45,353 bases of DNA from an uncultured bacterium (lineage in GTDB: Bacteria > Ratteibacteria > UBA8468 > B48-G9 > JAFGKM01): contig CAYQXZ010000002.1 of the NCBI GenBank assembly GCA_964421645.1, positions 1 through 45,353 of the forward strand, read 5' to 3'. The position numbers and the translations under genes are program-made. The notes below the pieces were generated by a model. That model saw nothing but the letters and a program-made list of their open reading frames with translations. It made no database searches and was not told the origin of the DNA. This document shows, in pieces, positions 3,853 through 25,036 of this stretch (position 1 is the first letter of the stretch; the number at the start of each line of letters is the position of its first letter).

Positions 3853-4039
3853 ATTTTTTCTTGAATTTTTCCACCATGCCGGCGCTGTCAACGAGCTTCT
3901 GTTTTCCGGTAAAATACGGATGGCAGTTGGAACATATTTCCACCTTTATCTCCGGTTTGGTTGACCTGGTCTTCACGATGTTGCCGCAGACGCACACAAT
4001 GTTGCAGTCCGTGTAATTCGGATGTATCTTTTCCTTCAT
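3839..4039 (-). CDS. rpmE: 50S ribosomal protein L31 (zinc-binding type)
   Basis: 66 aa, MKEKIHPNY... with CxC...CxxC cysteines and the HPYFTGKQK motif. Confidence 0.93.
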
Positions 4040-4055
4040 CTTTTACTTCCTCCCT

Positions 4056-4607: not shown

Positions 4608-4668
4608 TTTAGATTTCAGGTATCCCTATATTTTACTTATAATTACGGGAGGCGTCAACCCGGGGACG

Positions 4669-7290
4669 CTATATCTCCCGGAGGGCGCCGGTCTTGAGAA
4701 AAACGATGAACCTCTTTACTGCGGGTATGTCCGGGAAGATCCTTCTGGCAGCTTTCTCGTATATATCCATCTGTTCTGCCTGGCGCCCGGTGCTGCCGCC
4801 CTCCAGCTTATAGTCATATATGCAGCAGGTATTTTCTTCCCTGTTCAGGATAACCCTGTCAATCGCACCGGTATAGATCCTGCCCTTTTCCAGCTCAATA
4901 ATGAACGGCAACTCTGAAAAAGCTTCGCCTTCCGCGTGTTTTTCAACAATCGCTTTCAGCCGCGTATTTTTCTCAAGATTTTCATATACAGCCATAAGAA
5001 CGTCCCGTATCTCTCCGGCGTCATCAATTCCTGTTTTCTCCAGGTAGAAACGCGCCCTTTTTTCGTATTCCCGCCTGTCCGGTTTTATTCTGCCTTCGGA
5101 TATATCGCACATGAGCTTGTGCGCGGTATCCCCGGCAACGGTACTCTCAAAACGGTAGTATTCATGCTCCTTTTCACGGGTATACGAGGTAAGCATCGGA
5201 AAAACTTTATCCCCGGGGAAGCCTGTTTTCATCTCCTTCGCCTTCTTCTCAAAAGGCATGCCCGTGAAACATCTCACATCCGAAGGAGGGAATGTACTTT
5301 CAAATTTCTTCAGGCGGTTCAACCACAGGCCGCTGTCGGAGCCGCGCCTGTTCTTTACTCCTGAAACGAAAAGATACTGGCGCGCCCGGGTGAGGGCGAC
5401 GTAAAGCACCCGCTCCTCTTCCTCCTCCAGCATACTCCTGTGGGCATTCCTGTATTCCTCATCCGCTTCGCTTCTCAAAACAAACTTGTACGGGAACTCT
5501 GCTCCGGATGTTCTTCTGTAGAGAATTTCATCCTTCAAAATCACCCTTCCATCCTCAACGTTTATCAGAAACACTGCGGGAAATTCCAATCCCTTTGCGT
5601 TATGTACGGTCAGGATCCTGACGGCATTCTGGTGTTCCGAAAAAATGTCCGCCTTGGCCTCTTCGTCAGAAATCGCCACTGTCCTCAAATTCCTTGACAC
5701 CTGGTACAGCGGCAGGTCTTCCCATTCCTGAAGCAGCAGGAGGAACTTCTCGGTGTTGGCCTTCTGCTGTGTGCTCAGTCCGTCCCAGTATCCTGTCTCC
5801 TCCAGGATGAACTCAACGGTCATCGTCAATTCTTCCGAAGCCAGCCTCCGCCTCCATTCATAAACCTTCTGTTCCGTTATCCCGTAGACAGAATTACGCA
5901 GATTCCACAGCGATATCCTGTCTGTGGGATCGGCAATTGCGAAGACCAGGGCAAGCAGGAATATTATCTCCGGCTCGTTGTAGAACCCGATGCCTCCCAG
6001 AATGACAAAAGGTATCGCCGCTTCCTTCAGCTGCCGTTCCAGGATTAGGAAATTGTTACCGGCTCTCTTTCTCATCAATATGGCGATATCCCTGAACTCC
6101 ATCGGACGCAGCTCTCCTGTCTTCTTGTCCCGCACCGGATTCTTGCGGTTCACAAGTTCAAGTATCCTGCCGAGAATCCATTCGTACTCTTTCTTTTTCG
6201 CTTCCGGATTCTCACTGCCGTCAACCAGGTTTATCTCTATACTGTTCGGACTCCTCTTTTCAAGCCCGGTTGACAGAGGCTGTTCGTTCCATGGATACGT
6301 GTCTCCGAAAACATTGTTGACGAACTCCAGTATCAAGGGTTCGCTCCTGTAATTCCTCAAGAGCTTTTCCTCGCTGCAGTAATCGCTCAAGACTGCTCTC
6401 GCATCGTCAAAGACACTGCCTTCAGCACCCCTGAACTTGTATATTGACTGCTTCCTGTCCCCCACGAGAAAGAGCCCGTAAGACTCCCCTTTTTCCGCCT
6501 TCGCCCCGTAGCCGGAGAGCCACTCTTCCGCGAGCTTGTGTATAATCTCCCACTGGAGTATGTTGGTATCCTGGAACTCGTCCACGAATATATAATTGTT
6601 CTTCTCGTCAAAGTCCTCAAGGATCGTGAGGGACTCCGGGTATTCCGCAAGCATCCGGTACGTCAGTATCTCAAGGTCGTTGAAATCCAGCATTGAAAGT
6701 TCTTTCTTCATCCTAAAATGGACTTCGGATATGCGGCGGGAAAGCTCGCTTATCTCCTTTGAAAACGCGCCTTCCGGAAGACCCGCGGTGGCATAGGGAT
6801 GACACTTCCTGACGGCAAAGAGAAGAGCCTTGAGGGAATTCAGCTTGAAATCCTTCAACACCGACAGCATCCTTTTGCTGTCTCTACCGTTCAGAAAATT
6901 GTAGAAGGCCCTGTAATAGAGCAGGTCGCTCTGTCTCTCGTCTATGACAGTGAAGAACGGGTCCATGCCCGTGTAGAACGCAAACCTTTTCAGCATGATG
7001 CGGCAGAAGGAATGTATTGTGGATATCCGCAGTTTGAGCATTGCGTTTTCCGCGTCAACCTTCCCGGTCTCGGTAAGCCCGGGATATATCCCGGCGTATA
7101 TCTTCTCCAGCACCCGCATCTTCATTTCCACCGCGGCCTTCTCGGAAAATGTCATCGCGAGGATTTTCCGCATCATGGGTGCGGGATTATTTTTGTCAAG
7201 GATACCGGTGAACTCTCCCGTTATGCGGCTCGTCTTGCCGGTCCCCGCTGACGCCTCTATGATTACCGCCCTGAAGTCAGGCTTTTTCAT
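4669..7290 (-). CDS. addA: UvrD/AddA-type helicase-nuclease subunit A (compact form)
   Basis: Walker A ASAGTGKT, DExx box (FVDEFQDTN), UvrD-like motifs (LRNYRS, VHNAKGLEF, VALTRAR). C-terminal PD-(D/E)XK-like motif (GAIDRV...IYDYK). Overlaps the addB-like gene by 14 nt. Confidence 0.8.
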   Translation of the reverse strand: MKKPDFRAVIIEASAGTGKTSRITGEFTGILDKNNPAPMMRKILAMTFSEKAAVEMKMRVLEKIYAGIYPGLTETGKVDAENAMLKLRISTIHSFCRIMLKRFAFYTGMDPFFTVIDERQSDLLYYRAFYNFLNGRDSKRMLSVLKDFKLNSLKALLFAVRKCHPYATAGLPEGAFSKEISELSRRISEVHFRMKKELSMLDFNDLEILTYRMLAEYPESLTILEDFDEKNNYIFVDEFQDTNILQWEIIHKLAEEWLSGYGAKAEKGESYGLFLVGDRKQSIYKFRGAEGSVFDDARAVLSDYCSEEKLLRNYRSEPLILEFVNNVFGDTYPWNEQPLSTGLEKRSPNSIEINLVDGSENPEAKKKEYEWILGRILELVNRKNPVRDKKTGELRPMEFRDIAILMRKRAGNNFLILERQLKEAAIPFVILGGIGFYNEPEIIFLLALVFAIADPTDRISLWNLRNSVYGITEQKVYEWRRRLASEELTMTVEFILEETGYWDGLSTQQKANTEKFLLLLQEWEDLPLYQVSRNLRTVAISDEEAKADIFSEHQNAVRILTVHNAKGLEFPAVFLINVEDGRVILKDEILYRRTSGAEFPYKFVLRSEADEEYRNAHRSMLEEEEERVLYVALTRARQYLFVSGVKNRRGSDSGLWLNRLKKFESTFPPSDVRCFTGMPFEKKAKEMKTGFPGDKVFPMLTSYTREKEHEYYRFESTVAGDTAHKLMCDISEGRIKPDRREYEKRARFYLEKTGIDDAGEIRDVLMAVYENLEKNTRLKAIVEKHAEGEAFSELPFIIELEKGRIYTGAIDRVILNREENTCCIYDYKLEGGSTGRQAEQMDIYEKAARRIFPDIPAVKRFIVFLKTGALREI

Positions 7291-10018: not shown

Positions 10019-10942
10019 ATGGCGAAAAAAAGAAGCAGGGGGAAGAGGATTCAAAAGGGGATATTGCACTTCATCATATTCCTGTTTTTTGTCCTCAACT
10101 ATTATAAGATCAGGCTCATGCCCGCCGTTTTCTATCCCGTCTTTGCCAGGATAACGGGCCTTATGACATTCGGAACAATGAGAAAAAACAGGAAGTTGAT
10201 ACTGAAAAACCTGGACATCGCCTACGGAGACGGCATGAGCCGTGAAGAGAAAATCAGGATATGCAGGGAGATTTTCGTATCAATCGTTCTTGACCTGTGC
10301 GAGACCATACAGATAGGCAAGCTAACCGACCAACAACTGCTGGACACGACCGTCATTGAAGGAGAAGAAAATCTGAAGACCGCCCTGAAGCAGGGAAAAG
10401 GTGTGGTGGCAATATGCCCCCACATGGGCAACTTCCCCAAGCTCCAGGCGGTACTGACGAAGAAAGGACTGCCGGTGACCTACTTCTCAAGACCGCCCTC
10501 CGGCGACCACCTGGCAAGGTTCTTCAAGAGACTCATCGGCAGTGTCAACGTCCCCCTGATATACGTCGTTGACATGAAGAAAGCCATAAAAGAATCCCTG
10601 AAATGGCTTGCGGGCAACGGAGTCCTCGGTTTCTACATAGACCAGCACACCAGAAGCGGTGTCGAGGTAGCGTTCTTCAACAAGAAAGTCTTCTCCCCCC
10701 CGGGCGCCGCCACCTTCGCGAGAAAATGCAACTGCCCGGTCGTCGGCCTTTTCACCTACCGCATGAAAGACGGGAAGCAGAAGATAATCGTGGAAGGCCC
10801 CTACCCCATACAGAGAACGGGCAATGCCGCGCAGGACATACAGGTAAACACCGCCTTCTTCATGCAGAGGGTTGAACACTACGTGAGACAGCATCCGGAA
10901 CAGTGGTTTACCTGGCTAAGCAAACGCTTCCGCACCCCTTAA
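10019..10942 (+). CDS. Lysophospholipid / lipid A acyltransferase (LpxL/HtrB family)
   Basis: ICPHMGNFP (HxxxxE/D-type acyltransferase box region) and family-typical C-terminus QHPEQWFTWLSKRF. The preferred start is the in-frame ATG at 10019 (MAKKRSRGK...) followed by a TM helix; the ORF track begins at 9779. Confidence 0.75.
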   Translation: MAKKRSRGKRIQKGILHFIIFLFFVLNYYKIRLMPAVFYPVFARITGLMTFGTMRKNRKLILKNLDIAYGDGMSREEKIRICREIFVSIVLDLCETIQIGKLTDQQLLDTTVIEGEENLKTALKQGKGVVAICPHMGNFPKLQAVLTKKGLPVTYFSRPPSGDHLARFFKRLIGSVNVPLIYVVDMKKAIKESLKWLAGNGVLGFYIDQHTRSGVEVAFFNKKVFSPPGAATFARKCNCPVVGLFTYRMKDGKQKIIVEGPYPIQRTGNAAQDIQVNTAFFMQRVEHYVRQHPEQWFTWLSKRFRTP

Positions 10943-10949
10943 GCCCACT

Positions 10950-11525
10950 TCACAACGAACACAACAACATCACCAGCGCGGAAGAAAGTCCCACCGACAG
11001 GTTATCGTCAACAGGCAACGGCAGGATTTCAACGAGAGACGCCGTCACCGCCCCTGCCATCAACAGCAGGAACGGCACATTCAACAGAGGGAAGATAATC
11101 ACTGCAATTACCGCGTTGAACAGCAATCCTCCGGCAAGCCCTTCAACCGTCTTGCCGTGAAATATCTTCGTCCTTCCGTACCTCGTCCCGATGATACCGC
11201 TTCCGGCATCGCCGAAAACAAGAAAGAACATGGCGGCAACGGCAATCTCCTTACGGAAGAACACAAGTATTAGAAGCACCGCCAGCATGAAGCAGGTATC
11301 CCCGGTGAGCATGCCCGGACGGTTCTTGAATATCCCCCTGGATTTATTGAGGATATACTGCCATACCCCGGGATGCCTCCATCTTTCGTATTCAAGAAGG
11401 GTAAGCAGGAGGAGAAAGAAGAACGAGATTGCCAGGGGGAAGCCGCGGTTTCCGGCCGCAAGGTATGCAACCGGAAAAATTGAGCCCATCACCATCCGGT
11501 ACGTCTTCCTTTTCCACATCGTCAT
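10950..11525 (-). CDS. Polyprenol/diacylglycerol kinase-like membrane protein (CdsA / dolichol kinase / phytol kinase superfamily)
   Basis: Polytopic membrane protein with the superfamily motif FGDAGSGIIGTRYGRTKI..GKTVEGLAGG. Confidence 0.6.
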   Translation of the reverse strand: MTMWKRKTYRMVMGSIFPVAYLAAGNRGFPLAISFFFLLLLTLLEYERWRHPGVWQYILNKSRGIFKNRPGMLTGDTCFMLAVLLILVFFRKEIAVAAMFFLVFGDAGSGIIGTRYGRTKIFHGKTVEGLAGGLLFNAVIAVIIFPLLNVPFLLLMAGAVTASLVEILPLPVDDNLSVGLSSALVMLLCSL

Positions 11526-11576
11526 TTTTTCGTCTTCAACTCCCTACTTCCTTCCCTCTCCCTTGAGGGGAGAGGA

Positions 11577-12173
11577 TCAGGGTGAGGGTGCTCTCCTGAT
11601 CTCCCTTACCATCCCCGGATTTATCACGAACGCGGACAGGATTAACATAATCGTGGATACTGCCGTCTGAACAAAGAGCGCCCTGTCAACCCTCAATCCG
11701 TACTCAATATACAGACAGATAAAATAGAAGACCGTACACGTAAGAAGGACCCTTGGTGAACGCGGATTTATCTTCTGTGCGATAAACCACAGGATTATCA
11801 CGAGCGGAAAAAGTAGAGGCATGAGAAACAGAACTATCCCTCCGGTAGTCGCTGCCCCCTTGCCTCCCCTGAACCGCAGGAAAATTGACCAGCAGTGCCC
11901 GGCCACGGCAGACAGCCCGATGAGCGTGAGGAGAATTATATTTGTGATGCCCAGGTTTCTCGCAAAGGCCATGGGAACCATGCCCTTTACGGTATCCCCC
12001 GCCCAGACCAGAATGCCCCACTTCTTCCCTATGCTTCTTGCCACGTTCGCGGCACCGGAGTTCTTCGTTCCTATTTCCCTTATATCCTGTCCAGTCAGGA
12101 ACAGTGTGAGCAGGTATGCAAAAGACACACTCCCCAGCACATACCCGGCCACCACGCAGGCAGCTATCTCCAT
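11577..12173 (-). CDS. plsY: Glycerol-3-phosphate acyltransferase PlsY
   Basis: GSVSFAYLL, NSGAANVARSIGKKWG, GHCWSIFLRFRGGKGAATTGG. ATG at 12171-12173; the ORF track uses GTG at 12176. Confidence 0.92.
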   Translation of the reverse strand: MEIAACVVAGYVLGSVSFAYLLTLFLTGQDIREIGTKNSGAANVARSIGKKWGILVWAGDTVKGMVPMAFARNLGITNIILLTLIGLSAVAGHCWSIFLRFRGGKGAATTGGIVLFLMPLLFPLVIILWFIAQKINPRSPRVLLTCTVFYFICLYIEYGLRVDRALFVQTAVSTIMLILSAFVINPGMVREIRRAPSP

Positions 12174-12188
12174 CACCCCCGTTATACC
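12133..12188. repeat. Direct repeat copy 1 (plsY -10 region, start codon and first ~13 codons)
   Basis: 56 nt, CCCAGCACATACCCGGCCACCACGCAGGCAGCTATCTCCATCACCCCCGTTATACC. Recurs at 15034-15089 with one mismatch (offset 2901 bp). Confidence 0.95.
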
Positions 12189-12210
12189 TCCTGTCTCCCG
12201 CCCCGGTCAA
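12181..12210 (-). promoter_or_regulatory. Putative sigma70-type promoter of plsY
   Basis: On the minus strand: TTGACC (12205-12210), 18-nt G-rich spacer, TATAAC (12181-12186), ending 7 nt before the ATG. This implies a leaderless or near-leaderless mRNA. Alternatively the GGAGG in the spacer is a distant SD. Confidence 0.4.
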
Positions 12211-12311
12211 CTGCAATCATCATGCCATTGAATACTCATGTTTCTTGATCTTAGTTTATCTGATGGTTAAGTATGATCGTTTGACAACATCCTGGAATAT
12301 CCGGCTGTGGC

Positions 12312-13907
12312 TTAAGAGCCAAGCAAGCGAACAGTTATGATAGTTACGCAGATTATAACCGCCGAAATGATCAGCGCCAGGGCAAGCCGGTTAAGAGAGC
12401 GCTCAAGTTCCCGGGTGCTGCCCTCCAGGCCCTCATGAAGAAAATGTATCTTGAAACGACCGCTTTCCGCTTTGCGCGCAATTGAGAACATAAGACCCGG
12501 CAATTCGGCTAAACCCTGGCCCGCAAGTCGTGCCTTGCGCCTTAATTTCTTTGATAGGTAATCCGGTTCAAAATGTTTCTTCCTTATTTCCCTGACCACC
12601 GGGCCGGCGTATTTGATTGGCTCAAATTGGGGGTCAAGACTTCCAGCCATGCTCTCAACCATGAGCAAAGATTTCCCCAACAGCGCCATATCGGGAGGAA
12701 AAGAAATATCAAAGTTACGGCAAATCCTGATGCTGTCAATAATGAACTGTCCCAATTGCACTCTCCGCGCAGGCAGTGATTTATATCTTTCAAATAGGTC
12801 GGTAATATCACGCCGGAAAAGGCGCTCGTTGATATCGGAAGAAATCAATTTGAAACGGTAAAATGCCGCCATCAAAGAATCTATATCATCGTTAATCAGA
12901 CTGAAAATAACGTCAAACAGAATATCCCTGTCGGTTTCATGAAGGATTCCTACCTGCCCGAAATCCAGAAGACATATCTGCTTGTCGAGAACACAGATAT
13001 TGCCGGGATGCGGGTCTGCGTGAAACATTCCGAAATCAAGCACTTCCTTGAGAAAAGTCTCAAATATACGCCTGGCGATTTCCGCAGAAGATATTTCCGA
13101 TTTCTCCAATTTTCCGGGAAATAACGGCACGCCTTCCACTAATTCCATGGTCAGCACTCTGCTGGTGCTGTAATCCCAGAAGACTCTCGGCAGATAGACA
13201 TCCGGATTATTGCTGAAATGCGTCCTGAATCTCTCTATCCGCATTGCCTCCAATTGAAAATCAAGCTCTCTATTCAGCTGGTATCCAAATTCTTTTACAA
13301 GTTCTTCCGGACGGAAAATCCTGGCTTCGGGAATCCGGCGATTTACGAGTGACGCCAGCTCTTCCAGGATTTCCATGTCTGCGCGGATTATCTTCGCGAT
13401 TCCAGGACGCTGGATCTTTACCGCGACCGGTTCTCCGTTTTTCAGTTTTGCGGCATGCACCTGTGCCAGGGAAGCAGCCGCTCTCGGTACCGAAGAAAAT
13501 TCGTCGTACAGATTTTCCAAAGGCTGATTGAACTCTTCAGAAATTACCGTTCGGATATCCTCAAACGATATTGGGGCGACGTCCTTATACAGGCGGCTCA
13601 ATGTGTTAATAAAAGCTGGAGGGAGTATATCCGATCGTGTGCTTAGAAACTGTCCCAGTTTGACATACGTCGGGCCCAGCAATTCCATGGCATTGACAAC
13701 CTTTTCAGCGACAATGTGAAGGGGAGGTTCATTCAGCCGGCGTCTATAAAAGAAATATCTCAATGGCGGTTTTGCGGAAAGTCTATCCGTAAGATAACTC
13801 AATCCGCAACGAGTTGCGACGACTATTACCTGCCGTAATCGGCCCCAGCTTCTTATCGGGAGCATGTTTATATCAGGAGCGAAATTCAGCGGCCGGACCG
13901 CTTCCAA
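12312..13907 (-). CDS. ubiB: ABC1/UbiB-family atypical kinase
   Basis: ABC1 domain motifs (AAASLAQVHAAKLKNGEPVAVKIQRPG, HADPHPGNI, LDFGQVG) and a C-terminal TM helix. Start is ambiguous: TTG at 13907 or ATG at 13865. Confidence 0.88.
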   Translation of the reverse strand: MEAVRPLNFAPDINMLPIRSWGRLRQVIVVATRCGLSYLTDRLSAKPPLRYFFYRRRLNEPPLHIVAEKVVNAMELLGPTYVKLGQFLSTRSDILPPAFINTLSRLYKDVAPISFEDIRTVISEEFNQPLENLYDEFSSVPRAAASLAQVHAAKLKNGEPVAVKIQRPGIAKIIRADMEILEELASLVNRRIPEARIFRPEELVKEFGYQLNRELDFQLEAMRIERFRTHFSNNPDVYLPRVFWDYSTSRVLTMELVEGVPLFPGKLEKSEISSAEIARRIFETFLKEVLDFGMFHADPHPGNICVLDKQICLLDFGQVGILHETDRDILFDVIFSLINDDIDSLMAAFYRFKLISSDINERLFRRDITDLFERYKSLPARRVQLGQFIIDSIRICRNFDISFPPDMALLGKSLLMVESMAGSLDPQFEPIKYAGPVVREIRKKHFEPDYLSKKLRRKARLAGQGLAELPGLMFSIARKAESGRFKIHFLHEGLEGSTRELERSLNRLALALIISAVIICVTIITVRLLGS

Positions 13908-14225
13908 TCATTTTGCCGCTTTTTTAATACCTGCCTTTTTCTCAAGTTCCTTGATTCTTCTCTGGAGAAACGCAATATCCTCGGTGCTTGCCACGTGCAT
14001 TTTTTTTAATGCAAATCTCACTTCTTTCTGCACCCGTTTCGCGAATTCCTCTTGAAAAGCGGCGACATTCTTTTTCAATTCCTTCTTCATTTCCGGGATT
14101 TCCTTTCGTTTCTCCTCGGCGTGTTCCGTAATCTCTTGAACAAATTTTGACAATTTCTCTTCGCTGTAAGCAGCCATGCCCAGCCCCACTTCTATCATGC
14201 GCTCAATCAGATTTTTTTCACTCAT
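13908..14225 (-). CDS. Phasin-like coiled-coil protein (COG3937-like)
   Basis: About 105 aa, charged and helical, ending in a STEDIAFLQRRIKELEKK-type tail. ATG at 14225 is preceded by GGGAGG; the ORF track starts at TTG 14243. Directly upstream of ubiB. Confidence 0.55.
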   Translation of the reverse strand: MSEKNLIERMIEVGLGMAAYSEEKLSKFVQEITEHAEEKRKEIPEMKKELKKNVAAFQEEFAKRVQKEVRFALKKMHVASTEDIAFLQRRIKELEKKAGIKKAAK

Positions 14226-14274
14226 TTGCACCTCCCGGAACAACGGTGACGCTGCACAGAGAATCAGCTTTCAG

Positions 14275-14328
14275 AGGCCGCTGTTTCCATCTCAACCGTT
14301 ATACCTCCGCGCCCCTCCCCCCGTCAAC
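14275..14328 (-). repeat. Diverged third copy of the plsY promoter/start region, probably the promoter of the phasin-like/ubiB operon
   Basis: Minus strand: TTGACG (14322-14327), 18-nt G-rich spacer, TATAAC (14298-14303), then ATGGAA. Colinear with the plsY upstream region: CCGTTATACCTCC is identical and the rest is roughly 65-70% identical by hand alignment. Confidence 0.6.
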
Positions 14329-14379
14329 CACATACTGCTCTGACACAAAGTATTTGACATTTCTATTGCCCGGATAATG

Positions 14380-14388
14380 TGGTAAAAT
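14380..14388 (+). promoter_or_regulatory. Extended -10 promoter element upstream of the MNT gene
   Basis: TGgTAAAAT (TG at 14380-14381, hexamer 14383-14388), 8 nt before the ATG at 14397. No SD in between, which suggests a leaderless transcript. Confidence 0.4.
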
Positions 14389-14396
14389 ATTTAACA

Positions 14397-14702
14397 ATGA
14401 ACAAGGCAATTTTGATACCTAAGGAAAAGATTAAAGAATTCTGTGTGCGAAATCATATCAACCGATTATCCTTTTTCGGTTCAGCAACAGGAGACGATTT
14501 TACTCCTGAAAGCGACATAGATATCCTTGTTGAATTTGAGCAGGGCTTCACCCCGGGGTATTTCAAATTACTTTATATGGAAGAAGAATTATCCTCTTTT
14601 TTAAATGGCAGAAAAATTGACCTGCGGACGCCGGAAGATTTAAGCAGATACTTCAGAGAAGAAGTCAAAAACGAATCCGAGGTATGCTATGTCAAAGGAT
14701 GA
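14397..14702 (+). CDS. mntA: Minimal nucleotidyltransferase antitoxin (MNT/MntA family)
   Basis: GSATGDDFTPESDIDILVEF (GSx10-DxD NTase motif). Overlaps the HEPN gene by 14 nt. ATG at 14397 is preferred over the GTG at 14379. Confidence 0.88.
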   Translation: MNKAILIPKEKIKEFCVRNHINRLSFFGSATGDDFTPESDIDILVEFEQGFTPGYFKLLYMEEELSSFLNGRKIDLRTPEDLSRYFREEVKNESEVCYVKG

Positions 14703-15021
14703 CCTGATACGAGTCAAACATATTCTTGATGCCTCTAGAGAAGCCGTGCAGTTTCTGGAAAATCGCGATAGGAAAGACCTTGATTCTGACAGAATGTTAA
14801 GTCTCTCCATCGTGAGACTTCTGGAAATTATAGGTGAAGCAGCAAAAGGTGTTTCTATTAAAACAAAAGAAGAATATCCGGATATACCATGGAAAGAAAT
14901 GACGGGCATTCGTGACCGTCTTATCCATGGTTATTTTGACGTAGATATGGAAATTGTCTGGAAAACCGTCAGAGAAGACATACCTGCACTGATAAACCTG
15001 TTGGACAAAGTCAAGATTTAA
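14689..15021 (+). CDS. hepT: HEPN-domain (DUF86/HepT) toxin
   Basis: Rx4H motif in GIRDRLIHGYFDVD. 110 aa, immediately downstream of MNT. Confidence 0.88.
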   Translation: MSKDDLIRVKHILDASREAVQFLENRDRKDLDSDRMLSLSIVRLLEIIGEAAKGVSIKTKEEYPDIPWKEMTGIRDRLIHGYFDVDMEIVWKTVREDIPALINLLDKVKI

Positions 15022-15026
15022 TCAGA

Positions 15027-15074
15027 CTACCATCCCAGCACATACCCGGCCACCACGCAGGCAGCTATCTCCAT
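15027..15074 (-). pseudogene. Truncated plsY 5-prime fragment (MEIAACVVAGYVLGW-stop)
   Basis: ATG at 15072-15074 followed by 13 codons identical to plsY. It then diverges and stops at TAG 15027-15029, 6 nt from the hepT stop codon, in convergent orientation. Confidence 0.8.
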
Positions 15075-15089
15075 CACCTCCGTTATACC
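15034..15089. repeat. Direct repeat copy 2 of the plsY 5-prime region
   Basis: 55/56 identical to 12133-12188; the single difference is C to T at 15079. Confidence 0.95.
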
Positions 15090-15196
15090 ACTACCCCTAA
15101 CCACACCCCCTATACCCGCCATAGGATCCTAAGTCCCACCAGTGAAAATTCATCCTAAAACACTCACTTGGCTTGGAAATGAAGATAACGGTTGGG

Positions 15197-15224
15197 GGAA
15201 AAAAGAAGAAAAAGTGCACTTTTC
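15197..15224 (-). terminator. Weak intrinsic-terminator-like hairpin after the C39-like gene
   Basis: 14-nt palindrome AAAAGTGCACTTTT (15210-15223), followed on the minus strand by TTCTTCTTTTTT. The stem is AT-rich and therefore weak. Confidence 0.3.
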
Positions 15225-15250
15225 TCTCTATCGTGACTTCCTTCTTCCCT

Positions 15251-15850
15251 TCATTTTATTCCCTGGATATTCAGAGAATAGACCTCGTTCGAACTGTTTT
15301 TCCTATGTGCACAAAACTCTATAAAGGACATTTCCTGGAGGGGAATGCTGCCGGGATCGTGTAGGTAAATGACTTTTTTTCGCAAGTCATAGCCCACAAA
15401 GAGAACGAAATGGTTAAAGATTTCGGAATTCACGTCGACCTTGTTTGAGACACCGGGGAGAGAAATAATGCCAATGAGTACCGGTTCACCTTTGCCGACC
15501 GACTGAACAAGCCATTGGATATCGTCGGTGTAATCTGCGGTATCACTTACTTTCCTGTACCCTCCCCGAAAAAGTATTTGCATTTTCTTCATTGTTTTCT
15601 CAAGATCTTCCGTCCAATAAATTCCCCTGTCCCTGCCTGCCAGTCCCGCCATTACATCATGGACATATTCCTGCGAAACCGGTTTTCCGTAATATCCCGC
15701 TATCATTTGAAGACAGGCCTCCCCGCAGTAATTGGGTCTTGCCATTGCAAAGAAAGGAACCTGAAGAATTACCCTGTCTTCAAGAGCGTTTGCGTCGATG
15801 GAACAGAGCGCCAACAGAAGAACCCACTTATATCTAACTGACAGTTTCAT
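15251..15850 (-). CDS. Secreted papain-fold cysteine peptidase, C39-like
   Basis: Signal peptide MKLSVRYKWVLLLALCSIDANA from the ATG at 15850. Catalytic Cys context NYCGEACLQMIAGYYG, His in NHFVLFVGYD, Asp in LHDP. Confidence 0.7.
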   Translation of the reverse strand: MKLSVRYKWVLLLALCSIDANALEDRVILQVPFFAMARPNYCGEACLQMIAGYYGKPVSQEYVHDVMAGLAGRDRGIYWTEDLEKTMKKMQILFRGGYRKVSDTADYTDDIQWLVQSVGKGEPVLIGIISLPGVSNKVDVNSEIFNHFVLFVGYDLRKKVIYLHDPGSIPLQEMSFIEFCAHRKNSSNEVYSLNIQGIK

Positions 15851-15888
15851 TTCACAACCACTTGTGAAACATTCACCAGCTGTTTTTT

Positions 15889-16035
15889 TCAAAGAATATC
15901 AGAAGTCCCGACGGATTTACAAGAAATTCTCTCTTTAGCAGCTTGGTATGTTTCCTCTCTCTTGATCTTCAACAGTTCCACCCACTTGCCGACTTCAACA
16001 GTTTTCAACAGACTCTTTTCGTCATTCTTCGCCAT
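15889..16035 (-). CDS. Possible 48-aa small ORF (MAKNDEKSLLKTVEVGKWVELLKIKREETYQAAKERISCKSVGTSDIL)
   Basis: Found by hand translation; it is below the 60-aa track cutoff. It fills the spacer between the beta-helix and C39-like genes. No convincing SD and no recognisable motif. Confidence 0.2.
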   Translation of the reverse strand: MAKNDEKSLLKTVEVGKWVELLKIKREETYQAAKERISCKSVGTSDIL

Positions 16036-16145
16036 TAGCATCTGAACAACGATACAGTAAAAATCAGTATTGGTAAAAACACAAGAACCGCCCGGCTGTG
16101 ATTTGACATTCGACTTAAGAAATACATCGCCCTTAGACCATTCAA

Positions 16146-17339
16146 TTAGAAAGGTTCTGCCACAACAATCCCTCCGCGAGATTGTGATACATTTACCACG
16201 CTGCCTTTATGATACACATTCAGGTAACTGCCTGTGTCTGCCGATAAATCCTGTATCTCTCCGATTATACTAGATACAAGATTGGAACCGCTCATCGTGT
16301 AAATACTGCATTTGCTGGGACCTGCCACTTTTATAGGACCACCATAAAGTGTACTTGATTTTTGCAGAACAATGCTAGCCGGAAAATCAGACTGTGTCTC
16401 AACGATTATTTGGGCACCTTCTGCCAGAATATGCCCGTCGTCTTCCAATCCAATAACCGCATTGCTCTGCATTTTGGCTGTCAACGTTATTTCAGTTCCA
16501 TGCATATCTATCCTTCCCGAATTATTGATGGCGAGACAGTTTGACTGCCCGCCCCAGGATGTAATCATGACTTTTTTGCAACCAAGTTCTATGATACCGA
16601 AATAACTGGCGGAGAGAGAACCATTCCCCATGGAAAGACATCCGTTTGAATCCTGCCATTTCACAATTCCACCATAGTCCGCCATGATACCGCAGAATGA
16701 TGCCTCCGTCTGTCTATTGGGCAGGTCTTCATTCATTTCAATCGTACCATATAACAGGACTACACCACCCCTTGAAGCGCATATTCCGCTACCAGACAGA
16801 CTGCCTGTGCGGATTCGGACATCGTTAAGATGGACTTCGCTGCCGGTGCCAAAAACCCTGATTCCTTCCTGGGAACCCGGATAGTCACGATTGCCAATTT
16901 GAAGATTTTGAAATTTCCAGATGCCGTTTTTTACAACAATCAAAGGTGTGAATGGCCAGTTCAATATAATTTGTCCTTTATCAGCCGGCTTGGTGAAACT
17001 ATTATTTTCTCCCGCAAAGGTCACACTGACATCAAAAATAGATGCACTGCTACGATGCATCTGCCGGTCCAATATCAGGTTGTTCTCGGGCATATTAACA
17101 CCACCGGTTGTATTATATTCTCCGGCCCCAAGGTGAATAACGACATGTTGTTGAATAACATCCGGCAGGAGAGCCAAGGCTGCGGAAATCGTTTTGAGCG
17201 GTTTTTCATTTGTGCCAGAGTTTGTATCAAGCCCAAGCATGGGATGTACGTAAATATCGGAAATAGCAACTGCCGCATTTCCGGTTGCACAAACCCACAT
17301 TATTCCCATCAAGAGAAATATTTTGGACACGACTATCAT
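16146..17339 (-). CDS. Secreted right-handed parallel beta-helix protein
   Basis: Signal peptide (IFLLMGIMWVCATGNAAVA). N-terminal YVHP..GLDTNSGTNEKPLKTISAAL signature typical of beta-helix (DUF1565/pectate-lyase-like) proteins, then G/N/I-rich repeats. Confidence 0.6.
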   Translation of the reverse strand: MIVVSKIFLLMGIMWVCATGNAAVAISDIYVHPMLGLDTNSGTNEKPLKTISAALALLPDVIQQHVVIHLGAGEYNTTGGVNMPENNLILDRQMHRSSASIFDVSVTFAGENNSFTKPADKGQIILNWPFTPLIVVKNGIWKFQNLQIGNRDYPGSQEGIRVFGTGSEVHLNDVRIRTGSLSGSGICASRGGVVLLYGTIEMNEDLPNRQTEASFCGIMADYGGIVKWQDSNGCLSMGNGSLSASYFGIIELGCKKVMITSWGGQSNCLAINNSGRIDMHGTEITLTAKMQSNAVIGLEDDGHILAEGAQIIVETQSDFPASIVLQKSSTLYGGPIKVAGPSKCSIYTMSGSNLVSSIIGEIQDLSADTGSYLNVYHKGSVVNVSQSRGGIVVAEPF

Positions 17340-17559
17340 AATTCCCCTGGTTTAACTGTTTTACGACAGTTCAAAAAAATTAGGTTTCTTTTCAACATGC
17401 TACAGACACTCGTATCCCTTTCCCTGGTCACCATGCTTGATTAGAACGTATATACGGCTATTATAGTATCCGTGCTATTCTTGTCAAATATTATTACAGG
17501 CTCAAAGGTGAATATTGTGTATGAGATGACCTTCCCCCAAAAAACTACACCAAGAGGAA

Positions 17560-18534
17560 TCAGAGCTGCACGGGTTTACCGGTCTGCATGGAGGTGTAGG
17601 CGGCGAAGGAGACCTTCAGGCTCTTCAGAGCGTCGGCATAGTCTGATTTCACGAGAGACTGGTCATTCTTCACCACGGCCCTTATGAATGCCCTGTCCTC
17701 CTCCAGCATGGGAGCAATGGATGACGTGTGGATAACCTTTTTGTTGCCCCTGTCTATGGTAAGGGTGTTTCCCGCGTAGCCCAGCATGATGCCCTTGCCT
17801 ATCACGTCCACGCCGCTGTTGAATCCGCTCCAGAGCCAGGTGCAGGTAAGGTTGCCGATGCAGCCGTTCTTGAATCTGACCAGTGTTGCGGAGACATCTT
17901 CCACGTCGTATTGCTCGTATAGCTTTTTGTTTATACCTTCAAACTTGTACGCGAAGACCTCTTCCACGTCTCCGATAAGGTATCTCATCATGTCAACGGT
18001 ATGGGTGGACTGTTCTATCAGCTGGCCGCCGGAAAGGGATTTCTTGCTGTACCACGCTTTACCCGCTCCGGGTACGCCGCCGTAATACCTGCCGAGCGCG
18101 GCACCAATCTTTTCCTTTGCCAGTACCTCTCTTGCCATGTCCACAACGTCAAAGTACCGCAGGACGTAACCGGCAGAGGTGATGAGTTTTGCCGACTGCA
18201 CCTTTTTTGCGATAGCGTCTGCCTTGTCCATGTCCAAATGCAGGGGCTTTTCCACGAAAAACGGGATTTTTCTCTCTATGCACGCCTCCTCCTGGCCCTT
18301 GTGGGCGAAAGGCGGAACGCATATGAAGCAGGCATCAAGTTTTATTTCGTCAAGCATTTTCTCAAAATCGGTATAGATCTTGCCTCCGTAGGTGGCGGCT
18401 GCCTTCTCCGCCCTGCCCTTGTCTATGTCGCACATCGCGGCAAATTTCACATTCTTCAACTGCGCCAGGTACGCCATATGGGCGCCGGCTATCCCTCCGC
18501 ATCCGATAACCGCTATGTTCGCTTTCATTGTCAT
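17560..18534 (-). CDS. Gfo/Idh/MocA-family NAD(P)-dependent oxidoreductase
   Basis: Rossmann N-terminus NIAVIGCGGIAGAHM and the EKP motif (FFVEKPL). Confidence 0.85.
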   Translation of the reverse strand: MTMKANIAVIGCGGIAGAHMAYLAQLKNVKFAAMCDIDKGRAEKAAATYGGKIYTDFEKMLDEIKLDACFICVPPFAHKGQEEACIERKIPFFVEKPLHLDMDKADAIAKKVQSAKLITSAGYVLRYFDVVDMAREVLAKEKIGAALGRYYGGVPGAGKAWYSKKSLSGGQLIEQSTHTVDMMRYLIGDVEEVFAYKFEGINKKLYEQYDVEDVSATLVRFKNGCIGNLTCTWLWSGFNSGVDVIGKGIMLGYAGNTLTIDRGNKKVIHTSSIAPMLEEDRAFIRAVVKNDQSLVKSDYADALKSLKVSFAAYTSMQTGKPVQL

Positions 18535-18604
18535 ATCTCCTTTGTGTAGTGACTGCTACGGGTAATTTACGGTAACAGACGCAATATGATAATATATAAG
18601 AGAG

Positions 18605-19369
18605 ATGGAAGCAAAAGATTTCAGGATAGCAGGCATCACCCGGCTGACCGGACAATTATACAGTATGAAGCTTGAAGGCTCGTTTGCCAGGCCGCCGGTG
18701 CCCGGGCAGTTCATCCATATCAAGGTAGACAACCTGTTTCTGAGAAGGCCGTTTTCCATCGCCAGCCATAAAGATAACATCTTCACAATCCTCTTCAAGG
18801 TCGTCGGGGAAGGAACGAACCTGTTAAGCAGAGCGAAAGAAGGCGACAAGTTCAATGTGATAGGTCCTCTCGGAAAGGGATTCCAGGTTAAGAAAGAATG
18901 GAAAAACGCCTTTCTTGCCGGAGGCGGCACGGGGATCGCCCCTCTTGTTTTCCTGACGGAGACCCTGCTGAAGAACGGCGTGAGCGTTGCCTTCTTCTAC
19001 GGAGCAAGAAACAGGGAGGAAATAGCCTTTGACGTTCTGCCGTTCGGCGTCAACTGCATCTTCACCACGGAGGACGGAAGTTACGGGCAGAAGGGACTTC
19101 TCAATGCGGCCGTTGAAACCTGCATAAAGAAAGACGGCAAACCGGACGTGCTCTTCAGCGGGGGTCCTTACGGACTGCTTAAAGAAATCAACAGGTTATC
19201 GGAGAAATACGGCATACCGGCATTCGTTTCAATGGAAAACAGGATGGCCTGCGGAACCGGACTCTGCTACACGTGCGTCACGAAGATCAAGACCGACACA
19301 GGATGGGAATATAAGAGGGTCTGCATGGAAGGGCCTGTTTTCAATACGAACAAAATAAAATGGGAATGA
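18605..19369 (+). CDS. pyrK: Dihydroorotate dehydrogenase B electron-transfer subunit
   Basis: FAD motif RRPFSIAS, NAD-binding GGGTGIAP, 2Fe-2S cysteines CGTGLCYTC...C. Confidence 0.9.
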   Translation: MEAKDFRIAGITRLTGQLYSMKLEGSFARPPVPGQFIHIKVDNLFLRRPFSIASHKDNIFTILFKVVGEGTNLLSRAKEGDKFNVIGPLGKGFQVKKEWKNAFLAGGGTGIAPLVFLTETLLKNGVSVAFFYGARNREEIAFDVLPFGVNCIFTTEDGSYGQKGLLNAAVETCIKKDGKPDVLFSGGPYGLLKEINRLSEKYGIPAFVSMENRMACGTGLCYTCVTKIKTDTGWEYKRVCMEGPVFNTNKIKWE

Positions 19370-20313
19370 ACAGGCTGGAAGTGCGAATCGGGGGACTGCG
19401 CATGGAGTCCCCCATAGTCATGGTGAGCGGCGTCTTCGGCTACGGGGAGGTCGGCCTTGATTATGTCAATTACGGGAAGCTGGGCGCGATAGTCACAAAG
19501 ACCCTGTCACTGGAGCCTCGCAAGGGAAATTCCCAGCCCAGGGTGTGGGAGACCGCGTCGGGCATGATAAACTCCGTCGGACTTCAGAATCCCGGCGTGA
19601 GAGATTTCATACAAGACAAGATGCCTGCAATAAGAACGCACGGGGCGAAGATAATCATAAGCATCATGGGTAAGAACCTGAATGAAATCTCGGAGGTTAC
19701 CGGAATCCTGATGGAGGAGAAAGACCGCTTTGACGCGATAGAACTCAACCTTTCGTGTCCCAACGTTGACAGGGACAAGCCCATGGTTTCGCAGTCCCCG
19801 GAGATGACAGGAATATTTGTGGAGACAGCGAAGAAGTTATGCGGTAAAGTCCCGCTGATAGCAAAACTGTCGCCGAGCGTCACGGATATAACCGCCATAG
19901 CCGCTGCGGCGGAACAGGCCGGGGCAGACGGTTTGAGCATGATAAACACCGTCAGGGCGCTGGCAGTGGACACGGCCGGCATGCGCATAATAGAAGGCGG
20001 ACTGTCGGGACCCCCGATAAAACCCATAGGATTACGGGCGGTCTATGACGTTTACAGAAAATCCCGCATACCGATCATAGGGATAGGCGGGATAACTACC
20101 GGAAGGGACGCTCTGGAATACATGCTGGCTGGAGCAACCGCCGTGGGCGCAGGAAGCGGCTTTTTTTCCAACCCGGCGCTGATGGATGAGATATACGATA
20201 CACTGAATGATTTCCTGGCAAAGAACGGAAAGAGCCTTGCCGATATCACAGGTTCACTAAATGAAAAAGAACAAGGAAAAGGAACAGGGAACAGTACGGA
20301 AGCAAGGGTTTAG
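19360..20313 (+). CDS. pyrD: Dihydroorotate dehydrogenase B catalytic subunit
   Basis: Class 1 DHODH motifs (GMINSVGLQNPG, ELNLSCPN, IGIGGI). Overlaps the pyrK stop. Confidence 0.92.
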   Translation: MGMNRLEVRIGGLRMESPIVMVSGVFGYGEVGLDYVNYGKLGAIVTKTLSLEPRKGNSQPRVWETASGMINSVGLQNPGVRDFIQDKMPAIRTHGAKIIISIMGKNLNEISEVTGILMEEKDRFDAIELNLSCPNVDRDKPMVSQSPEMTGIFVETAKKLCGKVPLIAKLSPSVTDITAIAAAAEQAGADGLSMINTVRALAVDTAGMRIIEGGLSGPPIKPIGLRAVYDVYRKSRIPIIGIGGITTGRDALEYMLAGATAVGAGSGFFSNPALMDEIYDTLNDFLAKNGKSLADITGSLNEKEQGKGTGNSTEARV

Positions 20314-22132
20314 CGCCGGGAGAATATTTGTTGTTTCCAGCATATTCGTTTTCCTTTTCTTCAGGTTCTTTGTGGACGGGATGAGCTATCCGGGATTCAA
20401 TCTCTTCTGGAACGTATATTTCTTCATCCTTGTCATAGTCCAGCTAACTGCCGACCGGCTGAAAAGTTCCTACGGCAGGGAGGAAACGCTCCTACTCCTT
20501 TTCTTTCTTTTCTCCGCAATATCCACGGGACTTGCGCACATAAAAGGCACGGGCATCATCTCCAACGCCCAGATACTTGCCTACTGGTGTATCTTCATCC
20601 TTATAGCACGGAATTTCACGGAAAAAGACAGGAAGGTTGTCTTTCACATCATTCTCTTCACCGGATTGTTAATAGTTCTGTACGGTTTATACCAGCACTT
20701 CTGGGGGCTTGAGGAAACGAAACAATACGTATATGCCCGGCCTGAACTCTTGAGATCCATGTCCCCGACCTACATTAACAGGCTGAACAGCGACCGCATA
20801 TTTTCAACCTTCGTTTATCCCAACGTGTTTGCCTCTTTCCTGCTTTTTCTGATCCCCATATCCTTTTTCCCCCTTCTTTCAGGGGACAGGCTTCAGCTCA
20901 AAGTACTGTGCGGCGCTGTGTTCTTACTCTCTCTTTATAACCTTTACCTCACAGGTTCTGAAGGTGGTTTTTTTATATTTCTCTTCGTGGCACAGGTAAT
21001 GCTTTCATCCCTCGTTATGGGAAACTCAAAGAGGTTCCGAACCGTGCTTTCCTGCCTCATCATTTTTGAAGTCCTGTTGCTGCTGGCTGGATACCATGTG
21101 GGAAAACTGCCCAAGATGAGCTCTTTTGCGGACAGGATAACCTACTGGAAATCCTCCATGGGCGTTTTCAGCGAAAACCCGGTAACGGGTGTGGGGCCTG
21201 AAAATTACCGGTATCACTACCCGAAGTTCAAGCCGCCGGGAGGAATGGAGGCAAAACACCCACACTCCATATTTTTTGCCACGCTGTCCGAAACAGGCAT
21301 GGCAGGCACAATTTTCCTGTTTGGATTCCTGATCACCGTGTCCACCGGGCTGTTCGGGATTTCAGGGACATCGCCGTTTTTCCGGGGGCTCGCATTCTCA
21401 TTCCTTGCCTTCCTGCTGCACAACCTTGTTGATTTCAATTTTATAAATCCTTCGGTGGCGGTGTTGTTTTTCGTCTCCGCGGGGCTGGGAGCGGAAAACG
21501 CAAAGAACAGTACTCCTAACCCCACTCCTCTCCCCCAGTCGGCAAGGAAACAAAAAGGTACTTTACCCGTCTCGCCGGTTTTGACAAGATGGCTCAATTG
21601 CCTTATCATGATTGCAGTTCTTTTCACGGTAACAGGATACTTGAGATACGTCTCTTCAGAGAGAAATCTCTCTAACGCGCAGAGAGAAAAGAATATAAAC
21701 AATAGCCTTTATTACATTGAAAAGGCCATACGCCTGTATCCGGATAATTTTGAGGTGTATATCGCAAAAGGAGATATCTTCTACAATCTGTTTTCAGTAA
21801 CCAGAGAACCGTCCTACAGGAAAACGGCAGAAGATTCCTATAGATGTGCGCTGCTGTTGAATCCCCGTTCCACCTCGGTTTACAGGAAACTTGCTTTTCT
21901 CTATGAAGATTCTGGACGGATGAAATCGGCCGAACTCATGTACCTGGGCATGCTGGAGACGTACCCCAACAAAAAACAGTATAATATGGAAGCCGCGCTT
22001 TTCTACAAGAAAATCGGAGACGAAAAGAACTTCAGACGTTATTACGAGATAAGCGAAGGACTTCCTGGAGTCTCAGAAGAAGAAGGAAAACTCGTGGAAG
22101 AATACAGAAAATGGATAGAATCGCAGAAGTAG
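20261..22132 (+). CDS. O-antigen ligase (Wzy_C)-like polytopic membrane protein with C-terminal TPR repeats
   Basis: Many TM helices. Wzy_C-type periplasmic loop (NPVTGVGPENYRYHY...HPHSIFFATLSETGMAG). TPR-like C-terminus. 53-nt overlap with pyrD. Confidence 0.75.
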   Translation: MKKNKEKEQGTVRKQGFSAGRIFVVSSIFVFLFFRFFVDGMSYPGFNLFWNVYFFILVIVQLTADRLKSSYGREETLLLLFFLFSAISTGLAHIKGTGIISNAQILAYWCIFILIARNFTEKDRKVVFHIILFTGLLIVLYGLYQHFWGLEETKQYVYARPELLRSMSPTYINRLNSDRIFSTFVYPNVFASFLLFLIPISFFPLLSGDRLQLKVLCGAVFLLSLYNLYLTGSEGGFFIFLFVAQVMLSSLVMGNSKRFRTVLSCLIIFEVLLLLAGYHVGKLPKMSSFADRITYWKSSMGVFSENPVTGVGPENYRYHYPKFKPPGGMEAKHPHSIFFATLSETGMAGTIFLFGFLITVSTGLFGISGTSPFFRGLAFSFLAFLLHNLVDFNFINPSVAVLFFVSAGLGAENAKNSTPNPTPLPQSARKQKGTLPVSPVLTRWLNCLIMIAVLFTVTGYLRYVSSERNLSNAQREKNINNSLYYIEKAIRLYPDNFEVYIAKGDIFYNLFSVTREPSYRKTAEDSYRCALLLNPRSTSVYRKLAFLYEDSGRMKSAELMYLGMLETYPNKKQYNMEAALFYKKIGDEKNFRRYYEISEGLPGVSEEEGKLVEEYRKWIESQK

Positions 22133-24964: not shown

Positions 24965-25036
24965 AAAACAAAATCATGAGCCCCTCACAAGAAAGCTCAG
25001 AATGTGAGGGTTCGGGGTAAAGGGGGATAAACAACC

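Follow-up and report, generated by a model that had tools for sequence, protein, structure and literature searches.

How can a block of accessory genes come to lie at the start of plsY, bracketed by two copies of that gene's own promoter and first codons, when no recombinase is found in or near it? The question is raised by a contig of an uncultured bacterium (GTDB lineage Bacteria; Ratteibacteria; UBA8468; B48-G9; JAFGKM01), CAYQXZ010000002.1 of assembly GCA_964421645.1, which was analysed over its full length of 45,353 nucleotides (nt) and is referred to here as the window. It is an entire contig of a short-read metagenome-assembled genome (MAG) of 2.1 Mb in 253 contigs that is 86% complete. 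A 56-nt direct repeat of the plsY promoter and start encloses a UbiB-like kinase gene, a phasin-like gene and an MNT/HepT toxin-antitoxin (TA) pair. An initial annotation of this DNA compared the arrangement with attL/attR attachment sites left by an element that carries a replacement 5' end for its target gene, and named assembly error and a duplication-mediated rearrangement as further options. We favour another reading, to which we assign a probability of about 0.7, namely that a recombinase-free insertion with long target duplication took place at the promoter and start of plsY and left the repeat as its scar. Scars of this kind have so far been published only for restriction-modification genes, yet they are common around MNT/HepT cassettes in this bacterial group.

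The repeats at plsY and the accessory region

The two copies of the repeat agree at 55 of 56 positions, with C at 12178 and T at 15079 as the single mismatch, and their longest exact identity is 45 nt. Sequence, repeat finding and DNA search concur on this, and the repeat described in the initial annotation is confirmed. The copies are spaced 2901 nt apart and enclose an interior of 2845 nt (12189-15033), in which Pfam matches bear out the predicted ubiB, phasin-like and MNT/HepT genes (Table 1). None of 100 shuffles yielded any match to the repeat, and a search of the whole MAG for further 56-mers, which the annotation had suggested, returned these two copies only. In terms of plsY, the repeat consists of 15 nt upstream, including the -10 box GGTATAAC, and the first 41 coding nt, that is, 13 complete codons plus two bases of codon 14. 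Read in the direction of plsY, it runs GGTATAACGG(G/A)GGTG, then ATG, then 38 further coding nt. As had been claimed, only copy 1 continues into an intact plsY, orthologues of which occupy the syntenic position in relatives at 55-79% identity, and the translation of copy 2, (V)MEIAACVVAGYVLGW*, stops after 15 codons.

A GGTATAAY motif located 6-8 nt before the plsY ATG is kept in all 8 relatives examined (plsY starts of L043-L050), and no Shine-Dalgarno sequence was seen at the plsY start, either in the window (12174-12188) or in these relatives. Because the -10 box sits at the start codon, touching it, the plsY mRNA is probably leaderless. Copy 2 retains an extended -10 element (TGGTATAAC) aimed into the 3' end of hepT (14689-15021), 12 nt away; if active, this promoter would produce an antisense RNA over the toxin gene. 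A consensus scan for promoters and terminators gave counts equal to those of shuffles; the scan demands T at the last -10 position and so misses TATAAC. No inverted repeats were found at the ends of the module. Likewise, no integrase or transposase appeared in a Pfam scan of all open reading frames (ORFs) between 9.8 and 17.3 kb, nor any relaxase in or near the segment, as first reported.

Could the structure have arisen during assembly? In that case a short repeat would have led the assembler to link sequences that adjoin each other in no cell, for example a free repeat-bearing circle and an empty chromosomal site. The fragmented short-read MAG, the many HepT loci at contig ends and a k=31 Logan contig that breaks within both repeats could be read in this way. 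However, a 36.4-kb contig from another sample (L053, JGI 3300022556) covers positions 10222-25021 of the window with both copies, both junctions and the same C/T difference, and departs from it by 6 single-nucleotide polymorphisms (SNPs) over 14.8 kb, all of them elsewhere. The junction at copy 2 is also reproduced in L054 (JGI 3300025145; window 12879-25017, 6 SNPs), in L052/L057 (JGI 3300010319; 14327-15936, 2 SNPs) and in L056, a k=141 MEGAHIT contig from ENA (14327-16797, 0 SNPs). The Logan contig itself (L055; 12148-15078, 0 SNPs) breaks inside both repeats, as expected of a k=31 graph. The SNPs that distinguish the assemblies all fall outside 12133-15089, the module itself being free of them. 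An exact-pattern scan with the core of the repeat matched one contig among metagenome contigs, from the same population, and none among public genome contigs. As both junctions and the identical mismatch recur in independent assemblies, a mis-join is very unlikely; with five concordant samples, and with copies that differ at one base and share just 45 nt of exact identity, we give an artefact almost no credence.

The locus is free of the insert in relatives. In eight relatives from two genera the ancestral gene order is addB, lpxL-like, hyp191, plsY, GFO oxidoreductase and pyrK, and in six of them (G004, G005, G007, G013, G017 and G024) plsY starts about 24-90 nt after GFO. In the window the gap between plsY and GFO amounts to 5.4 kb (12177-17559) and holds six genes, none of which lies at plsY in the eight relatives; the comparison is between species, with the flanks aligned. 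A UbiB homologue is found in none of eight same-genus genomes, and elsewhere in the order at 37% identity at best, in keeping with the earlier view that the bracketed genes are accessory. The C39-like peptidase and the DUF1565-like protein, which lie outside the repeat pair, occur in this genome only among 26 genomes searched. The GC content is 0.39-0.49 across 12.2-17.5 kb and 0.50-0.56 in the flanks. Because its genes are absent from relatives and its GC content is lower than that of the flanks, we regard the entire 5.4 kb between plsY and GFO as accessory, a region larger than the repeat-bracketed interval. The idea of an island at the plsY 5' end therefore holds in so far as there is a real insertion scar, but the repeats do not delimit the island. 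The proposed comparison with empty sites had a similarly divided outcome: relatives do carry a plsY locus without the insert, but plsY there adjoins GFO, so that copy 2 falls in the middle of the inserted DNA and not at its edge.

Other genes occupy the same junction elsewhere in the genus, an Ldh_2-like dehydrogenase gene in G008 (L043 8171-9277) and a gene for a large heparinase-like protein in G002 (L044 7987-9693). On synteny, the GFO-plsY junction appears to be a recurrent landing place in the genus. In the same-genus genome G007, plsY is split across two contig ends (C156, 10474-10641, and C192, 1-468) with an overlap of 18 codons; a branch of the assembly graph inside the plsY start could reflect an insertion polymorphism there too.

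A third, decayed copy of the plsY promoter and start (copy 3) lies within the segment. It aligns without gaps to 12158-12211, with 41 of 54 positions identical (76%) and an E-value of 3.7e-5 against the whole genome, the next best match having 0.27 (blastn, 1/-1 scoring); the local alignment score is 28, compared with a shuffle mean of 9.7 (sd 1.6). The aligned span includes the -35 box (TTGACG or TTGACC), an 18-nt G-rich spacer and TATAACGG, and extends to codon 5. Copy 3 sits exactly between the TA pair and the phasin-ubiB genes, upstream of the phasin gene and in the same direction. In the direction of plsY the complete order is GFO, DUF1565, C39, copy 2, HepT and MNT (reversed), copy 3, phasin, ubiB, and copy 1 with plsY. 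Because a decayed third copy lies inside, the 2.85-kb segment is probably not one element and reads instead as the nested product of two events.

Table 1. Features of the plsY locus in the window and of the sister cassette on contig C6 of the same genome
Feature	Position	Strand	Remarks
plsY (glycerol-3-phosphate acyltransferase), intact	11577-12176	-	PF02660, E=8.5e-38; ATG 12173-12171, alternative GTG 12176-12174
Copy 1 of the repeat (R1)	12133-12188	-	-10 box GGTATAAC, 7-nt spacer, first 41 coding nt; on functional plsY
plsY-proximal stretch homologous to copy 3, proposed second target duplication	12158-12211	-	54 nt, -38 to +16 of plsY; -35 TTGACC, G-rich spacer
UbiB/ABC1 atypical kinase-like gene (cargo)	12312-13907	-	PF03109, E=1.6e-72
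Phasin-like gene (cargo)	13908-14243	-	PF05597, 29.3 bits, barely above cut-off; probable ATG 14227; translationally adjacent to ubiB
Copy 3 (R3), decayed plsY promoter and start	14275-14328	-	TTGACG, 18 nt, TATAAC, vestigial ORF METAASES*; upstream of phasin-ubiB
MNT (MntA-like nucleotidyltransferase antitoxin)	14379-14702	+	PF01909, E=1.1e-11, and PF18765; gene callers start at ATG 14397 (L053)
HepT (HEPN RNase toxin)	14689-15021	+	PF01934, E=7.1e-27; 14-nt overlap with MNT (14689-14702)
Copy 2 (R2), dead plsY -10 box and first codons	15034-15089	-	12 nt from HepT stop, convergent with HepT; ORF ends at 15027
C39-like cysteine peptidase gene, accessory, outside the repeat pair	15251-15892	-	PF13529, E=1.1e-12
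DUF1565-like secreted protein gene (probable beta-helix), accessory	16146-17339	-	weak PF07602 match
GFO/IDH/MocA oxidoreductase gene, ancestral upstream neighbour of plsY	17560-18534	-	synteny in relatives
MNT/HepT cassette on C6	C6:12541-13410 (L065 3542-4411)		756-759 nt between perfect 54-nt repeats (57 nt with one mismatch)

Bracketed cassettes across the family

A genome-wide scan for similar repeat pairs returned 18, and the cleanest besides that of the window surrounds a second MNT/HepT cassette, on contig C6. The repeat there corresponds to the final 17 codons of a ComF-like gene together with its stop. This filled allele is present in at least eight assemblies. An empty allele was found in L074, from a sister population (Logan, run SRR5214703), in which the identical ComF-like gene stands directly before a PIG-L gene and only one repeat copy is present; the filled allele equals the empty one plus the cassette and a second repeat copy. 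The HepT of the C6 cassette is not on record from run SRR5214703.

Is such bracketing a general property of these TA pairs? We surveyed 30 HepT loci with 1.5 kb on either side in 23 genomes of the family, and found direct repeats of 25-135 nt around 11 of them, at a spacing of 690-1720 nt; one further match (L093) is an internal duplication of the MNT gene and was left out. As controls, 300 random windows of this genome gave two matches, both from one pair of paralogous gene starts (the similar beginnings of two epimerase genes on contig C52, with no cassette), and none of 38 plsY or UbiB loci of the same relatives was bracketed. The difference between 11/30 and 0/38 corresponds to a Fisher p of ~4e-5, which is indicative only, since the genomes are kin.

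The targets are diverse, amounting to at least seven unrelated ones within a single family. They comprise the 5' half of tRNA-Ser(GCU), as far as the anticodon loop (45 and 44 nt in G002 and G022, the latter confirmed by ARAGORN), the start of another tRNA (25 nt, G005), the 3' end of a ComF-like gene up to its stop codon (54 nt in the genome of the window, G000, and 53 nt in G006), the 3' end of a ComM-like gene, again up to the stop codon (65 and 44 nt in G008 and G004), and a gene start (38 nt, G017). The repeats are derived from the target: they are different at each locus and match each host's own gene. The surveyed cassettes measure 660-890 nt and hold two TA genes only, in some cases together with a promoter of their own. 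Within 1.5 kb of the 30 HepT loci no linked recombinase was found, and no core shared among the repeats of the 11 loci was apparent on visual inspection or in pairwise blast comparisons between cassettes, a formal motif search not being part of this comparison.

When different species carry a cassette at the same target, these cassettes are mutual closest relatives and are conserved at least as well as their flanks. Those at comF are 84% identical across species (comF flank 76%, downstream flank unrelated), those at comM also 84% (flanks 79-80%), and those at tRNA-Ser 77% (flanks unrelated or too short to compare). Within a genome the two repeats are identical or nearly so, for instance 65/65 in G008 and 54/54 in G000. 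Because a neutral dead copy of such age should have drifted, the repeats would seem to be homogenised or the units to be turning over by way of the repeats.

Several further arrangements were noted. In the genome of the window, two additional TA-like pairs, at C48:3129-4060 and C219:1-1257, are bracketed by repeats of 36 nt (89%) and 25 nt (100%), respectively; one consists of UPF0175-like and PIN/DUF3368-like genes, and the other is VapBC-like and lies beside a serine-recombinase-like ORF. A tandem repeat with a period of ~248 nt (C136:4576-5156; L066/L076), in which neighbours share 320 nt at 99.7%, starts ~75 nt after another HepT gene near a contig end. On an unrelated contig (L123, JGI 3300077317, Ga0643563_0000629), four TA pairs are stacked after an epimerase gene at 2169-4787, in the order Phd/ParE, HicB/HicA, MNT/HepT and HicA/HicB. 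The first three are each bracketed by their own repeats (22, 90 and 66 nt), which overlap mutually, and a 31-nt tRNA-like repeat follows the fourth. To judge from this layout, L123 looks like a serial pile-up similar to the one proposed below for the window.

The remaining cargo at plsY is the phasin-ubiB pair. Homologues bear database names that place the genome of the window in Omnitrophota. The nearest relatives of the UbiB in this pair, at 56-60% identity, are found in other Omnitrophota, every one paired with a phasin-like gene, and in L058, L062 and L059 the pair lies between uvrC and a fused OMPdecase/RraA gene. This UbiB subfamily is short (501-531 aa) and always preceded by a small phasin-like gene. 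Phasin-ubiB looks like a conserved functional pair in hosts that are not known to make ubiquinone. Because the nearest UbiB relatives always sit with a phasin-like gene at the uvrC-OMPdecase/RraA position, the pair in the window would be a conserved unit that was relocated to the plsY locus.

Proposed serial insertion and its alternatives

We hypothesize that the locus was built in two steps. In the ancestral state plsY, with its -10 box right at the start codon, lay directly after GFO, and in this species six accessory genes came to lie between the two. In the first step, insertion of an MNT/HepT cassette of ~730 nt into the plsY start would have duplicated at least 56 nt (-15 to +41), so that plsY kept a working copy and dead copy 2 came to lie beyond the cassette. 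In the second, phasin-ubiB (2063 nt) would have entered between the cassette and plsY with a duplication of 54 nt (-38 to +16), which would have produced copy 3, now the putative promoter and leader of phasin-ubiB, and copy 1, the present plsY promoter. A weak similarity upstream of copy 2 (TGTGGTT..GGGG) suggests that the duplication of the first step was originally longer than 56 nt. Since the duplicated piece comprises promoter and start codon, each event would leave plsY intact and provide the incoming genes with a ready promoter, so that the cargo may be expressed at once.

The flanks of the three copies agree with what this order predicts. Copy 3 is flanked on its left by the end of the cassette and on its right by the phasin leader, copy 1 has the tail of ubiB on its left, and copy 2 alone keeps positions +17 to +41. 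Moreover, the limits of copy 3 (-38 to +16) are exactly those predicted for a 54-nt duplication across the point where the cassette end met plsY. The opposite order was rejected, as it would place the TA pair between ubiB and plsY, contrary to the arrangement. We suppose that the first duplication arises in some host repair or replication event, and that the repeat then acts as a homology arm for loop-out and re-entry. The repeats would later permit precise loss, and probably also re-entry at the homologous gene end of related cells through host homologous recombination; re-entry at the same gene ends would explain why targets are reused across species and why the repeats are nearly identical. 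On a bolder and more tentative version of this idea, TA cassettes, together with ordinary cargo such as phasin-ubiB, might spread generally by a recombinase-free cycle in which insertion duplicates a long piece of a conserved gene end and the duplication serves as a portable homology arm, followed by loop-out and RecA-mediated re-entry. Conserved gene ends would then be universal landing pads, duplicated promoters would give immediate expression of the cargo, and uncultivated lineages with small genomes would have a general way to gain genes.

A number of observations weigh against serial insertion at plsY. Under the proposed order copies 1 and 3 should be the more similar pair, yet copies 1 and 2 are 98% alike, whereas copy 3 matches copy 1 at 76% only and stands as the outgroup, differing from both others at 6 of the 31 shared positions (-15 to +16). 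This likeness needs either gene conversion between copies 1 and 2 or a copy 3 derived from a donor, and either is possible; conversion could favour copies 1 and 2 because they share 56 nt with each other and just 31 nt with copy 3, and such homogenisation appears to take place at other loci of the family. Serial insertion also calls for a first duplication that no established mechanism explains, either here or in the published insertions. Duplicates of plsY were not found beside the different insertions at the GFO-plsY junction of G008 and G002, and the C39/DUF1565 segment shows no duplication scar, with no fourth copy of the plsY start in the GFO/DUF1565 or DUF1565/C39 spacers. Finally, exact look-ups of PlsY, hyp191 and the C39-like protein yielded no empty-site or intermediate allele of the window locus.

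The age relation of the copies would be easier to understand if a pre-assembled composite of MNT/HepT, copy 3 and phasin-ubiB had entered the plsY start in one step from a related donor, copy 3 being an imported older scar. Entry could have occurred with a fresh 56-nt duplication, or by Campbell-type recombination between an excised circle of repeat plus module and the plsY start of the recipient. Besides the near-identity of copies 1 and 2 and the outgroup position of copy 3 at all 6 differing sites, the lack of SNPs across the whole module fits this route, and the 84% identity of same-target cassettes in different species, against 76-80% for their flanks, fits horizontal spread via homologous gene ends. 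However, the search for a donor turned up no phasin-ubiB pair at plsY, the closest UbiB (60% identical) being at a uvrC locus; the closest relatives of the HepT (76-81%) sit at targets other than plsY, and a second duplication in place explains the limits of copy 3 equally well. We therefore consider one-step entry a possibility to be kept in mind, albeit a doubtful one. A purely local origin, by tandem duplication of the plsY start region and later drift of native DNA, would account for three direct copies of one promoter and start inside 3 kb. It is hardly tenable, since what separates the copies is DNA foreign to the genus, with a lower GC content, and plsY abuts GFO in relatives; the duplication-mediated rearrangement considered at the outset, if confined to native DNA, is contradicted by synteny and gene content alike.

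The comparison with attL/attR implies a non-autonomous integrative element that carries a mimic of the plsY start and relies for its movement on a tyrosine or serine recombinase acting in trans from another locus. The geometry is indeed that of an element integrated into a gene end, some related cassettes occupy tRNA-Ser genes, where the repeat stops within the anticodon loop, and at comF and comM it ends exactly at the stop codon, as a mimic of a gene end would. Looking for a recombinase elsewhere, as the annotation advised, did reveal two tyrosine recombinases, the only PF00589 matches of the genome (contigs C130 and C190; one is Xer-like and lies beside ligA), and a possible serine recombinase, all on contigs other than that of the window. 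At least seven unrelated targets in one family, and repeats of 25-135 nt with no shared core seen, argue against a single att core. The cassettes of 660-890 nt hold just two TA genes, their repeats match each host's own gene sequence, and none of the 30 loci has a linked recombinase within 1.5 kb. Related cassettes carrying duplicates of many unrelated gene ends are not what a replacement 5' end for one gene would leave behind, and we judge the att explanation improbable. Other types of mobile DNA were rejected as well: dif/Xer-type sites and integron attC sites for want of a palindromic core and an adjacent recombinase, DNA transposons and insertion sequences because there are no inverted repeats and no transposase and the duplications are long and variable, and transposition with a fixed stagger because repeat lengths vary from 25 to 135 nt.

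Known systems and biological meaning

Recombinase-less DNA between direct repeats of a gene end, with stacked units separated by repeat copies, is also the picture offered by accretion of integrative and conjugative or mobilisable elements, such as the cis-mobilisable elements of the ICESt1/ICESt3 family, which accrete in tandem at att sites in the 3' end of fda. There, however, the integrase is known, the core is fixed and the units are remnants of large elements, whereas the loci described here have no integrase or common core, many targets and minimal cassettes. Integrons likewise array small promoter-proximal cassettes, often TA pairs, at one site with the newest nearest the fixed site. 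At plsY, by contrast, there is no adjacent intI, the contig contains no tyrosine recombinase, the separators are copies of the plsY start and not attC hairpins or imperfect palindromes, and the orientation is mixed. The MNT/HepT pair itself agrees with type VII HepT/MntA systems in both Pfam domains, in its small (101-107 and 110 aa) overlapping genes and in the order MNT then HepT. That family defines the action of the proteins, HepT being a toxic RNase that MntA neutralises by nucleotidylylation, and not the movement of a cassette, and membership is predicted here from the genes.

Insertion with long target duplication appears to be the closest described phenomenon, and a better frame for this locus than att sites. 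For restriction-modification units it was reportedly also described by Nobusato et al. 2000 (Gene 259:99). The duplications measured 46 to about 420 bp in the study of Furuta, Abe and Kobayashi 2010 and were unique in the genome; they sometimes overlapped gene 3' ends or tRNAs, no mobility genes were present and the mechanism was unknown (PMC2853133). These authors proposed a cycle of insertion, amplification via the repeats and release, and suggested DNA breakage by the cargo's own enzyme (PMC2853133). Breakage of that kind cannot be the cause here because the cargo has no restriction-modification genes. In common with those insertions, the present ones involve a small selfish unit without transposase or integrase, a direct duplication of host sequence of more than 30 bp and of variable length that is unique and often lies at a gene end or tRNA, an insert of differing GC content, and a single-copy empty allele, here that of the C6 locus. 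They differ in the cargo, a type VII HepT/MNT pair plus phasin-ubiB, in the nesting of events at one promoter, and in the probable reuse of the duplicated promoter and start codon by the cargo.

Measured against the definition in PMC2853133, the window locus shows an insertion relative to relatives with aligned flanks, a unique duplication of more than 30 bp, and an insert below 20 kb (2845 nt) without a mobility gene. In place of restriction and modification genes the insert encodes UbiB, a phasin-like protein, MNT and HepT, and because it is without restriction-modification genes we class the locus as a variant of the published set. A single-copy empty allele in the same species is seen at C6 (L074), with none on record for the window locus. 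In the literature searched, no application of insertion with long target duplication to TA modules was found; the phrase occurs in two TA reviews, but there only in the reference to that paper. Three things set the present case apart: cargo that is not selfish lies next to the cassette, the duplications are nested and overlap, and a duplicated promoter is probably reused.

How do TA modules, and likewise restriction-modification units, move without a mobility gene? For this old open question the plsY locus provides a tractable natural case, with a precise scar in several populations, a polymorphic sister locus and gene ends that are reused across species. By the same route, phasin-ubiB, a cargo that is not selfish, seems to have been added next to the cassette, and the duplicated promoter and start codon may both protect the target gene and express the newcomers. 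For annotation, the lesson is that a short dead start or end of a gene next to a TA pair is to be read as an insertion scar and not as a pseudogene or a mis-assembly. If general, the process would offer a way of gaining genes at safe sites to streamlined genomes such as those of Omnitrophota.

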